Shown here piece by piece: positions 27,001 to 33,000 of a DNA stretch of 64,000 nucleotides. The position numbers were made by a program. This DNA is from Vulcanimicrobiota bacterium (GTDB lineage Bacteria > Vulcanimicrobiota > Vulcanimicrobiia > Vulcanimicrobiales > Vulcanimicrobiaceae). Position 1 is the first letter of the stretch. Each line of letters starts with the position of its first letter. The stretch spans positions 384,001-448,000 of the forward strand of contig CAWGBN010000008.1 of assembly GCA_963820825.1 (NCBI GenBank). Reading direction: 5' to 3'.

Positions 27001-30000
27001 CTCCGACGATGTAGCCCAACGGTTTCATGAAGCTTCCTTCCGAGCGAGGTGCCGAGCTTTGGAGTGAACTCCGACTTCTCTCAATGCGCAAGTTCTTGAC
27101 TCTATGATGGCGCCGCGGCGCGATCAACGGAACGGACAACTGGACAACCGACTTGGACAAGTGGAAGCCGTGCCGACAAGGAAAGCGCCGAGACGCGGAG
27201 TCTCGGACTTAGGCTTAGAGCGGTCGGATCCCGGCAAGCCTTTCAGACCAGCATCGCCTGAAAGGAAGCCCGAGCCTCGGCCCACGGCTCCGCGACTCAC
27301 CGCGCCGCTCGGCGGACCCCGTGCCCCTTGCCGCAACCGCTATGAATCCATGCTACTAAAAACTACTTCTACCCGTGATCGCGAAGCTGTGGGCGTCGCG
27401 GCGGGAGCGGAAGGATGCGGAACTCACGCAAAAAAGAGCCGCCCGAGATTCGCGAGCGGCTCGACGCTCTGCAAAGTGTAAAAGAAGAGACTTTTCGCCT
27501 GCCCGTGCGATGCGTTAGCGAGGCGCGAAGTTTAACTAGATCACGGCGTTAACGAGAAGACGGTCCCGCCATTGTAGGCGCCGCCGTATCGCGTCGTGCC
27601 GTACAGGGTGCCATTGCGGTTGAGGAGGACTGCATCGGGCTGAGCGCCGTCCCCCGGTGCCCCGCCGAAGCTACGGAGCACGGTTTCAGCGCCGGATGTC
27701 GAGATCGAGAAGATTGTTCCGTCATTGTTCGCGCCACCATTGTAGGTCGTACCGTAGAGCGTGCCGTTTACGTTGATAAGGCTCGCCCGTGGTGTAGCAC
27801 CGTCCCCCGAGCCGCCGAAGCTGTGGAGCACGCTTTCTGTCCCAGACGGCGAGACCACGAAGACTGTTCCGCCGCCGTATGCGCCTGCGCCAGTGGTCGT
27901 GCCGTAGAGCGCGCCGTTGACGTTCACGAGGCCGGCCCATGGGTTTTTACCGTCATAGCCGCCGGCGAAGCTGTAGAGCACGGTTTCTGCGCCGGACGGC
28001 GAGATCACGAATACCGTTCCCCTCTGGTTCGCACCACCCAGCTCGGTCGTGCCGTACAGCTTCTCCATAGGGTGTCCTTGCAGTCGGACTTTGATCAGGC
28101 CGTCATTCGGCGTTGCGCCGTCCCCCGCGCCGCCGAAGCTGTGGAGCACGGTTTCCGCACCGGCCGCCGAAATCGAGAAGACCGTACCGCCGCCGCCCTG
28201 ACTACCATAACTGTAGCCGCCTCCCCCATCAGTGGTGCCGTAGAACGTTCCCTTGAGGCGTGCCAGGTGCCCCTCAGGCGCTGCGCCGTCTCCCGCGCCG
28301 CCGAAGGCGTGGAGCACTGTCTCTGCGCCGGCCGGCGAAATCGAGAAGAACGTGCCGCCCCCGCCGTAGCTCCCATACCCAACGCCGCCGCCTGAAGCAG
28401 TGGTGCCGTAGAGCGTGCCGTTGACGTTGATCAGGTCGCCCGCAGGGTTAATGCCGTCCGCGCCGCCGAAGCTGTGGAGCACGGTCTCTGCGCCGAACCG
28501 CCCGATTGTGAAGACCGTCCCGCAGTTGCACGAGTAATTGGCGCCGCCATATAAAGTCGTGCCGTAGAGTGTGCCGCGTACGTCGATCAGGCCGCTCGCG
28601 AACGGCTCGGAGCCGTCTACCGAGCCGCCGCCGAAGCTGTGGATCACGCTGTATGTGACATTCGGGTGCCTTCGTTCGCCCATCAGCCCGGCAGGTGCGC
28701 GCGAACCGGGTGTTATGCCAGAAGACGAGCCGATTAATGATGATCCGCCACCGCAGGCAGCAAGAAACGCTGAGGCAGCTGTCAATGCGCAGATAGCTAA
28801 AGTTGAAGTTCGCATTGGGTTCAAACTACTTTCTCCGAAGTGGCCCTGCCGCTCAGGGACGGATCTGCGCCTGCGCCGCATAATCCGAAGTAAACAGTCG
28901 CCGCCCGAAGCATAAAGCTTCGCAGGACGGGCGCGAAGGGCTGGGGCTACCCCAACGCAACACCACCCCAAGTGGGAACATGCATCCATGGTGGCGCTCC
29001 GGCGCGGCCAGCGGAACGGACACTTGGACAACCGATTTGGACAAGTGGAAGCAGAGCCATCGTATTCCCGGGACTTTCCCTTGGCGTGCACCCTACCCTC
29101 AACACGCGCGCGGTGCGCGAGCAGTGCGCCACCCCTCACGCCACATCGGTCCCTCGCGCGAGCTCCTTGCTATGGCCCCACGGCGAGGCCAAGCGGTTGT
29201 GAGAATCCTCCACCGATCGCTACCATGCACGACGACGACCGACAGCCCTTGGGAATCTCTCTTACCGAGCTATTGCCGCTGTCCGAGACGTAAACGTTAT
29301 CTCGAGCATCTACTTTTGCTGCGAGCGGGTCGGTGAATCCACCCATTATTACGCTTACGCACGACGCCGACTGGCAATTTGGCGGCATTTTCTTGACTTC
29401 CTTAGCTCCGCGATCGTCAACGTAGATGTTACCGTGGCGGTCCAGGGAAACGCTCGATGGAACGCCCCACCCGCCGCCTAGTCGGGCCACACATGACGCC
29501 GACTTGCAATTTCGCGGCATCTCTGAAACGTAATAGTAGGATGCAACGTACACGTTTCCATCCTTGCCAAGCGCAATGTCGCTCGGGCCGTAATCCCACG
29601 GATAGTATCCCGGACCGACGAAAGCGTCACCGCCCAACGTCACGACGCACGAATTGCGTTGACAGCCGGCGGGGACTTCTTTGACGTATCCGTGGCTATA
29701 GTCGGGGACGTAGAGGTCGCCGCGCTTATCGGAGACCGTCTGGAATGGATTGAGGTAATCGCCAGGCACGGTTGAAGCACAGCTTTTGCTGCTACATCCG
29801 GGTGCCATCCTATAGACCGCCGTATGGTAGTCGCAGGTGTTGCTCACATATACGTCGAGTGATGAGTCGGTGCTCACGAATGTCGGGCACGAGAATCCCT
29901 TGCCGACCGTCAGAACGCAACTTGCGTAGCGGCACGCTTTCGGAATTTCCTTTACGACCTTGCTGGTGTAATCAGCAATGTAAATATCGTGCAGCGGAGC

Positions 30001-33000
30001 CCACTTCGTGAAAGGCGCCGCGTTGGCCGACGTGATGTCTGATGGAACGGCGACGATCGGGGTAGACACATTCCCCCCGCCGCAGGCCGTCAGGAATACC
30101 GCCGCTGAGCACGCTGCGGCGATACAGCTCAACTGTTTAAAGTGCGAAAGTCGCATTGGTTCCAACCTACTCTCTTCCGGGGTGCTTTCATGTATCCATG
30201 ATGGGGCAGCGGCGTGATCAGCGGAACGGACACTTGGACAACCGACTTGGACAAGTGGAAGCCTAGCGACGAGGAGAGCGCGGAGGCGCGGAGTCTCGGG
30301 CTAGACTTCAGCAGAAGCCTGAGCGTCGGCCCTCGGCTCCGCGGGCACCCCGCCGACGGGGAGGCCCCGTCGCTGGTAAAGCTGGCGTGCAGAATCACAC
30401 AGAGAAGAGCCGCCCGCAGTCCGCGGACGGCTCGACGTTCTGTCTATGCTCCGCTCAGATAGGACACTAGCATTCGCTGTGCTCGCGCTCAGGGTGACGA
30501 GGAAGTGATCGACTAGCGTGATTCGAGTCGAACCTGCGGTAGCAACTCGTCGAAGTCTTCGCGGCGGCAGAGATGCGCCGCCGGCGTCATCGCCGTCCCA
30601 GCGCCCGCCGCGGTTCCAAGGCGTAGGCCTTCCGCTAATCCGCTCTCCTCGTTGAGGGCGATCGCCGAGACCCGCGACCATCGAATCACCCGAGCCGACG
30701 CTGCTGCACGTGCGAACCGCCGGCGCGAAGGCCTTCCAGCACTCCGACGGTCCAAGCGCAATCGCACCCGCCGCTCCTTGCGAGACGACCACGTGCTCGG
30801 CCCCGAGTTCTTGCAGACGGCGTGCAGCCGCGAGCGCATCGGCATCATCGTGAATTGCGCGGCCCAGTAACGCTTCGGCCTCTTCGATGTCGGGCTTGAT
30901 GAGCGCCGGCCGCGCGCGCACGGCGTGCGCGAGCGCGGCGCCGGAGGTATCGACGATCGTCCGCACGCCACGATCGCGCAGCCATGCGACGAGCTGCGCG
31001 TAGGTCTCCTCCGGCAATCCCGGCGGCAGGCTGCCGCCGAGCACGACGACGCCGCCGCTAGGAACCTGTTGCAGACGGAGCTGCAGATCGGCGATTCGCG
31101 CGGGATCGACGCGCGCTCCGGGAAGATAGATCCGGCTGCGCCGCGCGCTCGACGTTTCGTAGAGCATCACGTTGAGGCGCGTCATCTCCTCGACGTCGTC
31201 GAAGGCATGCATGACGTGCTCGGCATCCAGGCACGAGCGGATCATCGCACCGGTGACGCCGCCCACGAAGCCGAGCGCGATCGTTTCTCGCCCGAGGCGA
31301 TGGATGACGCGGCTCGCGTTGAGGCCTTTACCGCCGGCGTCGAGCGAGCCCAAGCGGCAACGATTGATGTTACCGAGCAGAAACGCTTCGATCTCGACCG
31401 CCTGATCGACGGCCGGGTTCAGCGTAACCGTCATGATCGGACCGCTCATCGTCAACTCCTAATCGATTCGCTTGCGGAAGCGCAGCACCGCTGTGGCAAA
31501 GACGGCGAGCCCGAGAGCGAGCAGCGTGAGAATCTGTGGCCAGAGATAATCGAGCCCGGCTCCAGCGTAGAGCCGGCCTGAGAATTAGTCGGGAATGCGA
31601 CGTTCACCACATCTTCTCGACGCTGCCCTACAGTCGCGCCATGGGAAGCACGATTGCGACACCCGCCTTCACCGACTGCCTCGAGGAACGGCCGTTCATT
31701 CGACCCTTCCGCAGCATCACCAACGCCGACGTGGCCGCGGTGGGCGGCAAGAATGCGTCGCTCGGCGAGATGTACCGTAACCTGGCATCGCTTGGCGCCC
31801 GCGTACCAAACGGTTTCGCGGTCACCGCCGACGCCTACCGCAAGGTACTGACGCGCGCGGGAGGCTGGGAGCGACTACGCGCGGCGCTCGACGGTCTCGA
31901 CCCCGCCGATCTCACCGACTTCGGCGCGCGCGCGCAGCGGGCGCACGCGATCGTGATGGAGGCGCCGTTGCCGCAGGAGCTGAGCGATCAGATTCTCGCC
32001 GCGTACGGCGAGCTGCGCGAACAGTACGGCGACGAGGTCGGCCTCGCGGTGCGCAGCTCGGCGACGGCCGAAGATCTGCCGACGGCGAGCTTTGCCGGAC
32101 AACACGAAAGTTTTCTCAACGTTCGCGGCGATGCGATGCTCCTCGAAGCCTATCGCCGCTGCCTCGCGAGCCTCTTCACCGAACGGGCGATTCACTACCG
32201 GCTCGATCAAGGATTCGATCACTTCAAAGTTTCGCTCTCAGTCGGGATCATGAAGATGGTCCGCTCCGACCTCGCCTGCAGCGGCGTCGCCTTCACGCTC
32301 GATACCGAGAGCGGCTTCCGCGACGTCGTGCTCGTCACCGGCGCTTACGGTTTGGGCGAGAACGTCGTGCAGGGGAACGTCGACCCCGACGAGTTCTACG
32401 TACACAAGCCGACCTACGCGCAGGGTTACCGCGCGGTCTTGCGCCGCCGGCTGGGAAGTAAAGCGCTGCGGCTGATCTTCGCCGAAGGCGATCGTGCCGG
32501 CACGACGACGCAGAACGTCGAGACCGACGAAAGCGATCGCAAGATCTTCTGCCTCCACGACTATGAAGTGCTCGAACTTGCCGGAACCTGCATCGCAGTC
32601 GAACGCCACTACAGCGAGCTCGCCGGAACGCCGCTGCCGATGGATGTCGAATGGGCCAAGGACGGGTGCGACGGATTGATCTACTTGGTGCAGGCTCGTC
32701 CCGAGACCGCCGCCTCGCGCAAGAGCGCGGCGATCGTCGATGAGTACCGGCTCGAAACGGCGGAGCAACCGGTCGTCGTCGGTCGCGCAGTGGGGACGTC
32801 GGTCGCGGCCGGTCCCGTGCACGTCGTGCACGACGATACCGATCTCGCGCGCTTTCGCCCCGGCGACGTGCTCGTTGCCGAGAGCACGACGCCGGATTGG
32901 GAGCCGGTGATGAAAAGCGCCGCGGCGATCGTCACCGATCGGGGCGGACGGACCTGTCACGCGGCGATCGTGGCGCGCGAGCTGGGAATTCCCGCGGTCG

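Follow-up and report, generated by a model that had tools for sequence, protein, structure and literature searches.

MalT of Escherichia coli acts through MalT boxes – arrays of short direct boxes at its target promoters – and its C-terminal LuxR-type helix-turn-helix (HTH) defines the LAL family. The C-proteins of restriction-modification systems (e.g., C.AhdI and C.BclI) are stand-alone dimers of ~75 amino acids on palindromic C-boxes, with tandem boxes directly upstream of a weak promoter. In the accessible text of PMC6389857, MalT and Bacillus subtilis GutR combine a NOD/NB-ARC core with a repeat sensor, and an inducer triggers ADP/ATP exchange and multimerisation. The Streptomyces activator AfsR is described in the accessible part of PMC10936776 as a SARP-NOD-TPR protein with two 11-bp direct repeats overlapping the -35 element and spacer at the afsS promoter, which has poor -35 (TTCAGC) and -10 (CACTGT) elements. 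Bacterial NLR-like defence proteins (Avs, bNACHT), in the partial accounts available, join a STAND NTPase and a TPR sensor to an N-terminal output domain that serves as a cell-killing effector.

We analyzed a cluster of surface lipoprotein genes within a window of 64,000 nucleotides (the whole stretch of DNA under analysis) from a Vulcanimicrobiota genome. We consider, with a probability of roughly 0.78, that the module repeated in this cluster is a regulated promoter whose boxes would be read by one STAND protein that switches on some ten surface lipoproteins, and that this promoter has since been copied. The system would work like MalT, GutR and AfsR and belongs to none of these groups. Like MalT and GutR, the putative regulator has an NB-ARC core and a repeat sensor, and short direct box arrays stand at the predicted target promoters; like AfsR, it has the order DNA-binding domain-NOD-TPR, and its direct repeats adjoin poor promoter elements. 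Unlike MalT, it carries an N-terminal XRE HTH, and we rejected LAL membership because the protein has no LuxR/GerE match and ends in a TPR region. The predicted targets are surface propeller lipoproteins, whereas those of MalT and GutR serve sugar catabolism, and the family is expanded (up to 25 XRE-STAND paralogues per genome) with paralogue-specific boxes. Membership of the SARP family, defined by an N-terminal OmpR-type DNA-binding domain plus BTA and by 11-bp repeats, was likewise rejected: the HTH is of XRE type and the boxes, 13 and 8 bp apart, lie upstream of the -35 element. Against NF053617 the regulator scored 42 bits, the cut-off being 1430. C-proteins are the closest solved structures to the HTH (C.AhdI, E 4e-4; C.BclI, E 4e-3), and the module resembles their sites in its tandem boxes ahead of a weak promoter, but this HTH forms part of a larger NB-ARC/TPR protein, its boxes are direct repeats and restriction-modification genes are not targets. 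The regulator shares the STAND NTPase, TPR sensor and N-terminal output domain of Avs and bNACHT, but its output domain is predicted to be a transcription HTH that has its own operator instead of a killing effector; PADLOC matched the regulator in its HTH only.

Repeated modules upstream of lipoprotein genes

The window contains three copies of one repeat family (81-86% identity), all on the - strand and each with a lipoprotein gene downstream on that strand (Table 1), the row of three that the initial annotation had described. A profile HMM built from these copies found 11 in the genome at E<=1.6e-11. The next match (E 0.0014) covers the promoter half only, and a search for the module core allowing <=1 mismatch gave 11 genomic sites, whereas none of 5 shuffles contained any. 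Lipoprotein genes follow nine of the 11 copies, a headless propeller fragment follows one, and the copy at C2:231792 has no target; the count of 11 and the earlier claim that ten precede a secreted-protein gene or its remains were thus borne out. Targets of the copies at L001, L002, L057 and L058 were assigned by hand or left unassigned. A PD-T4-6 (defence) identity for two targets was rejected, the matches being confined to NHL repeats.

Table 1. Features of the lipoprotein gene cluster, in window positions.
Feature	Position	Strand	Evidence
Terminator-like hairpin upstream of copy 1, between cluster and pfkB-family gene	30407..30433	-	consensus match only
Copy 1 upstream flank, common to other copies over 60-115 nt	30268..30380	-	blastn extents
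Module copy 1	30189..30267	-	repeat family + HMM
Copy 1 boxes	TTGTCC 30249-30254, TTGTCC 30236-30241, GTGTCC 30228-30233	-	
Copy 1 promoter	-35 TTCCGC 30221-30226, 17-nt spacer, -10 CATCAT 30198-30203	-	
Target 1, 328-aa lipoprotein, NHL beta-propeller repeats	29170..30156	-	PF01436 E 8e-14; lipobox in translation
Module copy 2	28979..29057	-	repeat family + HMM
Copy 2 boxes	29039-29044, 29026-29031, 29018-29023	-	
Copy 2 promoter	-35 TTCCGC 29011-29016, -10 CACCAT 28988-28993	-	
Target 2, 424-aa lipoprotein, 7 GloVer repeats	27541..28815	-	TIGR03803 E 1.4e-76, 7 stretches; lipobox
Terminator-like hairpin + T-run after target 2, dividing it from module copy 3	27436..27462	-	consensus match only
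Regulator gene remnant, last ~15 codons, accompanying module copy 3	27243..27287	-	
Module copy 3	27095..27173	-	repeat family + HMM
Copy 3 boxes	27155-27160, 27142-27147, 27134-27139	-	
Copy 3 promoter	-35 TTCCGT 27127-27132, -10 CATCAT 27104-27109	-	
Target 3, 344-aa lipoprotein, NHL/SBBP beta-propeller repeats	25994..27028	-	PF01436 E 3e-15, PF06739 E 6e-12; lipobox

The remnant beside copy 3 has a reading frame similar to the regulator C-terminus, and its local alignment with the regulator tail of a relative, G065, gave a z of 8.5, above all 60 shuffles. The upstream flank of copy 1 is probably the same tail in a decayed state, its direct alignment with that tail being non-significant (z 0.2). 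The hairpin upstream of copy 1 is predicted to insulate the cluster from the pfkB-family gene. An IS110 transposase gene also lies in the window, at 24280-25134.

Related genomes hold 44 copies in total, in 11 genomes. Our own sequence patterns, which miss variants with a 1-nt insert, matched 10 of 353 genomes; a first sample of 40 relatives and the viral contigs searched gave no module match. A strict generic pattern matched 11 of 401 genomes of the phylum, all from the window's genus – the genus from which the pattern was derived, and it is too strict to prove absence in others. Among the 29 core matches, we treated loci in unrelated taxa as chance because those listed share just the 20-nt core, without the promoter half. 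The window's genome and G065 (~80% genome identity) retain the module ahead of the same target genes. In the literature covered (main texts, few of them from subscription journals), we found no description of the module, of a family operator, or of an operator or target for XRE-NB-ARC-TPR proteins.

Box and promoter anatomy

The module reads as three direct NTGTCC boxes with spacings of 13 and 8 bp (predicted positions near -63, -50 and -42), directly abutting a sigma-70-type promoter. The initial annotation saw two tandem half-palindromes; three direct boxes are the better reading, and relatives carry arrays of three and five 13-bp units, with up to six boxes where this unit is amplified. The module promoter (-35 TTCCGC, -10 CATCAT) begins one base after the end of box 3. 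Its 17-bp spacer falls within the 16-18 bp rule, and -11A and -7T are each present in 38 of 41 copies; CATAAT and TATAAT (the latter in one copy) occur as -10 variants. The match to TTGACA/TATAAT is poor (2/6 for -35, 4/6 for -10, ~6/12 in all), in line with the weak promoter proposed earlier, and a standard promoter consensus scan did not call the module promoters. Such a poor match is as expected of an activator-dependent promoter. Across 41 copies from two genera, box columns are identical in 38-41 (93-100%), while the spacer is constant in length and variable in its letters and the flanks between and beside the boxes are also much looser – consistent with the near-invariant operator and variable spacer first noted.

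Transcription would start ~7 nt after CATCAT, which places most of the module upstream of the predicted start. This position tells against a structured leader RNA or riboswitch, a reading to which we give next to no credence. It would account for the single orientation of the module, always upstream of genes, and for the small hairpin possible in some spacers. A conserved fold with compensatory changes did not emerge, however, and we rejected a structured cis-regulatory RNA: an Rfam scan of window positions 25000-31500 gave no match at E<=1, and RNAalifold on the 41 copies left structure unsupported (-2.58 kcal/mol, covariation term +0.07, a double change in 1 of 7 pairs).

A candidate STAND regulator

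On our best reading, the module regulator is an XRE-HTH/NB-ARC/TPR STAND paralogue encoded outside the window (C2:319747-317239), a choice based on module co-occurrence and on helix-box co-variation across paralogues. Its G065 orthologue, P0001, has the architecture of a STAND activator – a DNA-binding domain (HTH_31, residues 12-74), an NB-ARC core (133-364, above cut-off) and a repeat sensor (TPR_12, 663-734) – and the regulator has the Walker A motif GAGGIGKT. Full-length regulator queries returned no match among PDB sequences.

The regulator's recognition helix occurs in 9 of 353 genomes, and all nine carry the module. Conversely, nine of the 11 module-bearing genomes among these 353 contain the regulator; the other two, G059 (88% complete) and G011 (92% complete), each hold a single module without an intact regulator, and one of them retains the regulator's tail. 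Some XRE-STAND paralogue is found in 83 of 91 genomes of the genus, an orthologue at >=73% in only five. G295 and G299 carry this HTH joined to an NB-ARC/TPR body of just 47% identity, and there the boxes track the HTH. Adjacency is less common than the earlier description 'often beside an NB-ARC gene' implied: the regulator adjoins 1 of the 11 copies in this genome and, counting all genomes, 10 of 44.

The regulator gene is frameshifted in the window's genome, G302 and, for one of two genes, G299. Since at least two target genes in the window's genome are frameshifted too, its regulon may be decaying. A protein-level comparison of this genome with G065 covered 7034 aligned residues and revealed 2 frame changes, each within an ORF that is itself doubtful; blastn gap counts at 80% identity are uninformative on assembly error.

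Layout and putative helix-box code among paralogues

We observed the same box-promoter layout on the divergent strand in 53 of 87 paralogous regulators vs the sense strand in one; it is absent in 34. Where the layout is divergent, ~60-120 nt separate the boxes from the start of the regulator. A lipoprotein gene lies downstream at 39 of the 53 loci with the layout vs 0 of the 34 without. The fifth letter of the box co-varies with residues 3 and 12 of the helix (for residue 3, mutual information 1.38 bits, p=0.0005, 16 clusters; at 75% clustering, four clusters remain and all power is lost). Shared descent contributes to this signal, as operator and HTH are adjacent in most paralogue loci, and the tree of HTH sequences has low resolution.

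At new loci the layout was divergent in 14 of 37 vs 0 of 37, the other 23 paralogues lacking it. Of 35 boxes, a rule set in advance called 23 correctly (p=0.0005); the majority box letter was uniquely right at eight of the 14 loci (12 including ties), wrong at one and unscorable at one. Taken together, co-occurrence, layout, co-variation and the pre-set rule give strong comparative support for cognate boxes. The box layout is most likely a family rule, with sister regulators using letters of their own that match their own DNA-reading helix. A period scan of the flanks of 17 STAND genes in the window's genome detected a 13-bp repeat at the focal gene only; sister operators near other STAND genes were recognised by eye in its output.

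Predicted direction of regulation

By analogy with MalT and GutR, a ligand would bind the TPR part of the STAND protein (XRE-HTH + NB-ARC + TPR), ADP would be exchanged for ATP and the protein would multimerise. Several XRE-type HTH heads could then fill the boxes, the head beside the -35 element recruiting RNA polymerase and activating the gene of a surface lipoprotein of beta-propeller or GloVer type. We infer binding, start site, activation, multimerisation and ligand from sequence comparison. Of the 'activator-type regulon' first proposed, the promoter-operator of a STAND regulator stands as the best comparative reading, while activation itself is suggested by box position and the poor -35 element.

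The same protein and boxes could instead serve repression, with HTH heads blocking the -35 element or the regulator's own divergent promoter until a ligand releases them. Many XRE proteins are repressors, an immunity repressor is among the PDB neighbours of the HTH, a single base separates box 3 from the -35 hexamer, and the divergent layout puts the boxes close to the regulator start. P2 C, in the accessible text of PMC2995052, represses via direct repeats. We consider repression unlikely because the boxes lie upstream of the -35 and -10 elements without overlapping them, and so weak a promoter leaves little to repress. C.AhdI, the best PDB match of the HTH, activates from a comparable position. 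MalT, GutR and AfsR, all of them STAND transcription factors, are activators in the accessible parts of PMC6389857 and PMC10936776, and the afsS promoter has similarly poor elements.

Spread of the module

The ancestral unit would combine a single regulator and its operator with one lipoprotein gene in divergent orientation; duplication or recombination may then have placed the focal promoter ahead of many unrelated lipoprotein genes, yielding a regulon that would act in trans (10 of the 11 copies lie away from the regulator). We read this as promoter capture by duplication, not transposition, on the basis of the ragged ends of the shared tracts (-14 to -250 and +21 to +283), the lack of RNA structure and the patchy species distribution (7 changes across an rpoB tree of 29 genomes).

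The initial annotation had raised spread with mobile cassettes. DNA duplication and some regulator 3' end remnants agree with this; the ends are not fixed and the boxes are near-invariant, which does not. In its passive form, the module would simply form the flank of a cassette (regulator tail, promoter and signal peptide) that was duplicated recently; most copies would be unregulated, and their similarity would reflect recent copying. The flanks shared between copies (60-250 nt upstream, up to 280 nt downstream), the patchy distribution, one copy without a target and another with a headless one, and a significant regulator-tail remnant in 2 of 10 non-adjacent copies all fit such hitch-hiking; with only these 2 of 10, we dropped the idea that every copy is a deleted-regulator cassette. 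Box invariance amid loose spacers and flanks nevertheless points to selection on each copy, and retention of the module at the same targets in G065 also makes hitch-hiking distinctly improbable.

A recombination site or transposon end that shuffles surface-protein genes (integron-like cassettes, or an IS110/IS3 target) would explain the three module-gene units in tandem, the resemblance of TTG-TC-CAA to a core site, the IS110 transposase gene in the window and an IS3 transposase gene immediately downstream of one copy in G296. We regard it as very improbable: the constant 17-bp spacer with -11A/-7T suits a promoter, box letters track a regulator helix and not a recombinase, shared tracts are ragged and viral contigs lack a match. 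No recombinase was found among the listed neighbours of the 11 copies. Fixed ends, an own recombinase and inverted core sites would mark a mobile element or integron cassette, which the ragged tracts led us to reject.

Implications

These soil bacteria are rich in XRE-NB-ARC-TPR proteins, and the copied STAND-regulated promoter proposed here supplies a candidate operator for them, with a family-wide promoter layout and a simple recognition code predicting which paralogue controls which gene. Binding and ligand screens could thereby be run directly in a reporter strain. The module connects the expansion of STAND regulators with that of surface propeller/GloVer lipoproteins, both of them unexplained, and may capture a regulon under construction, one promoter being copied ahead of unrelated genes. 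A bolder extension, possible though doubtful, is that the paralogues form a large bank of NLR-like one-component switches with rapid turnover, each sensing a different intruder or competitor molecule and inducing its own surface propeller lipoprotein via a two-residue helix code on a three-box promoter common to all. If so, sensor bodies and HTH heads would have been swapped, one head would have gained control of a surface programme of ten genes as its promoter was copied, and the system would perform transcriptional, immune-like surface remodelling instead of nutrient sensing.

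A three-box promoter module upstream of lipoprotein genes

A profile built from the three window copies of a 79-nt repeat identified 11 copies in the studied genome (G000) at E ≤ 1.6e-11, the number reported in the initial annotation. The next-ranked match (E 0.0014) covered the promoter half only, and the module core, with 11 occurrences in G000, was found 0 times in each of five shuffled genomes. As the initial annotation had also stated, 10 of the 11 copies precede a secreted-protein gene or its remains – nine a lipoprotein gene and one a headless propeller fragment. The remaining copy (L001, C2:231765-231843) is intact but lacks a target and faces the 3' end of an opposite-strand clpC-like gene; its target may have been deleted, or it may be an antisense promoter. 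A crude filter, from which one window gene escaped, called 132 lipoprotein genes in G000, 8 of them module-bearing. Apart from the module, no set of words is strongly shared upstream of G000 lipoprotein genes.

Features of the window (positions count from 1)
Feature	Position	Strand	Remark
Module copy	30189-30267	-	upstream of lipoprotein gene 29170-30156
Module copy	28979-29057	-	upstream of lipoprotein gene 27541-28815
Module copy	27095-27173	-	upstream of lipoprotein gene 25994-27028
Lipoprotein gene	29170-30156	-	NHL repeats; 85%-identical paralogue at G000 C7:7755-8747, without module and downstream of another module-bearing gene
Lipoprotein gene	27541-28815	-	seven GloVer repeats
Lipoprotein gene	25994-27028	-	NHL/SBBP
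Regulator-tail remnant	27243-27287		last 15 codons, with the module copy at 27095-27173
Lipoprotein or NHL-repeat genes	8466-10661, 39863-40885, 63371-64000		without module
IS110-family transposase	24280-25134	-	PF01548 + PF02371; 284 aa, C-terminus possibly short; just downstream of the three-gene cluster
Imperfect 16-nt inverted arms	24092-24107, 25481-25496		around the transposase
pfkB-family ORF	30301-31455	-	runs ~120 residues beyond the Pfam domain, across a terminator-like hairpin; stop inside the module's upstream flank; possibly a lost stop or frameshift
tRNA-Gly(CCC)	53553-53642	+	ARAGORN call; 90 nt, long for its type

In gene sense, the module reads TTGTCC-N7-TTGTCC-N2-GTGTCC-G-TTCCGC-N17-CATCAT, with box columns identical in 38-41 of 41 aligned copies. 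Across these copies the 17-nt spacer is constant in length and variable in letters, and the hexamer that follows it (variants include CATAAT and TATAAT) carries -11A and -7T in 38 of 41 each. Judged by sequence, the hexamer pair and spacer form a sigma-70-type promoter whose -35 is poor and whose weakness keeps it from being called by a standard consensus promoter scan. Assuming a start 7 nt after the -10, the boxes would lie at about -63, -50 and -42. The 13-bp unit is multiplied in two related genomes (three copies in G013, five in G065). That the module is instead an RNA element is a reading that fails, and we consider it extremely improbable. A 21-bp tandem array in an unrelated genome (L028) includes module core words, which we attribute to chance.

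Overall, we identified 44 module copies in 11 genomes, 40 of them followed by a lipoprotein signal on manual reading. The 39 downstream proteins scanned comprise 22 NHL/SBBP/lactonase/Vgb-type propellers, 11 GloVer proteins, one glycine-rich protein, one IS3 transposase and four without a match. Twenty metagenome loci gave the same picture, and named records with the full module are labelled Candidatus Cybelea or Eremiobacteraeota.

Co-occurrence with a STAND regulator

G000 contains 14 NB-ARC matches and 17 STAND loci (tblastn), five of the latter split by frameshifts; their N-termini, labelled by sequence inspection, include XRE HTH, LuxR-like HTH and cyclase-like types. Only one locus adjoins a module: C2:319747-317239, the focal regulator, with XRE-HTH, NB-ARC and TPR domains (read from the intact G065 orthologue). 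Across the 11 genomes, a regulator gene adjoins 10 of the 44 copies, five at its 3' end and five divergently at its 5' end. Adjacency to an NB-ARC gene was noted in the initial annotation, but its description there as frequent needs correcting.

Scanned across 353 genomes from the order, the module pattern matches 10 and the focal regulator's recognition-helix pattern nine, with eight common to both – though module-negative status is by pattern only, which 1-nt-insert variants escape. The ninth helix-signature genome, G295, has such a variant divergently upstream of its regulator; counting it, the module is present in 9/9. As a control, XRE-STAND paralogues occur in 83 of 91 genus genomes, an orthologue at 73% or more in only five. 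G059 and G011 each carry a single module and lack a regulator orthologue (best match 45% and 43%); in G059 the regulator's last 38 codons persist directly upstream of the module.

The regulator's HTH is found in G295 and G299 joined to a body that is just 47% identical. Two further G295 loci (C275:21314-23518 and C205:5997-8204) encode NB-ARC/TPR bodies that share 58-59% identity with the focal regulator but begin with another, longer N-terminus; head and body have, by these comparisons, been exchanged in both directions.

Helix-box co-variation across paralogues

On the divergent strand of four further G000 paralogues (sister XRE-STAND genes), the module's layout recurs in different letters. 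We assembled 87 paralogue loci (80 from the first 85 listed matches after removal of five orthologues, plus nine from G000, minus two that were too short). With a matrix model, 53 loci showed the layout on their divergent strand and one on its sense strand, a count that is partly circular since matrix seeds came from the same loci. Layout scores exceeded the maximum of 522 shuffles in 51 of the 53, and the layout mostly lay 83-118 nt from a fixed anchor. A lipoprotein gene is next at 39/53 loci with the layout, compared with 0/34 without it and 1/530 shuffles. Because what the paralogues have in common is NTGTNN, spaced at 13 and 8 bp, the focal module's palindrome is incidental, and the module is better described by direct boxes than by the two half-palindromes of the initial annotation. 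One paralogue subgroup (L064-L078) has two boxes 12 bp apart rather than the 13/8 layout.

Box letter 5 tracks helix residue 3 (D-C, N/K-G, E/Q-A), and His at helix residue 12 goes with C at that letter. Co-variation MI was 0.88 bits over 41 clusters and 1.38 over 16 (p=0.0005 each, 39 pairs tested); at four clusters the test was powerless. The pairings agree with known side-chain preferences.

The rule was fixed before 40 new loci were fetched, three of which had no HTH match (n=37). In these loci, whose kinship to the old ones makes independence partial, the layout occurred on the divergent strand in 14/37 and the sense strand in 0/37, with a lipoprotein gene next in 9/14 versus 3/23 without the layout. 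The pre-set rule was correct for 23/35 boxes (p=0.0005) and for 19/29 boxes where the helix string was unseen (p=0.002). Of the 14 loci, it was uniquely right in eight, tied in four, wrong in one and unscorable in one.

Spread and decay

Each of the other G000 paralogues has one operator, beside its own gene, and the focal regulator has 11. Tracts common to copies end variously from -14 to -250 and from +21 to +283, the regulator-tail remnant is significant in two of ten non-adjacent G000 copies, and module state changes at least seven times on a quick rpoB tree (29 genomes). These observations fit duplication or ectopic recombination that fused new lipoprotein genes to the promoter, the regulator itself being gained and lost. 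Of the mobile cassettes suggested earlier, the copying survives, with its tail remnants, but the shared tracts lack fixed ends. Passive hitch-hiking of the module seems improbable, and a recombination site more so.

Compared with G065, the G000 regulator gene carries a single additional base immediately behind the HTH. Two G000 targets are frameshifted, compared with at most two doubtful frame changes in 7034 core-gene residues, and the G299 and G302 regulators are likewise split. The G000 frameshifts may represent decay or assembly error.

A proposed ligand-gated activator

We propose, with a probability of roughly 0.78, that the module is the operator of a ligand-gated STAND activator; repression instead of activation is unlikely. 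The TPR part would sense a ligand, NB-ARC would exchange ADP for ATP and then multimerise, and HTH heads would occupy the boxes, the proximal one recruiting polymerase. The switch step is modelled on MalT and GutR (PMC6389857). Precedents are AfsR for direct repeats with a poor promoter (PMC10936776) and P2 C for an HTH protein binding direct repeats (PMC2995052). The solved structures closest to the HTH are C.AhdI and its kin. A literature search, with most subscription papers outside its reach, returned no description of the operator, code or regulon. The focal regulator falls outside the SARP and LAL families by their domain tests, and its proposed working mode would resemble that of MalT, GutR and AfsR.
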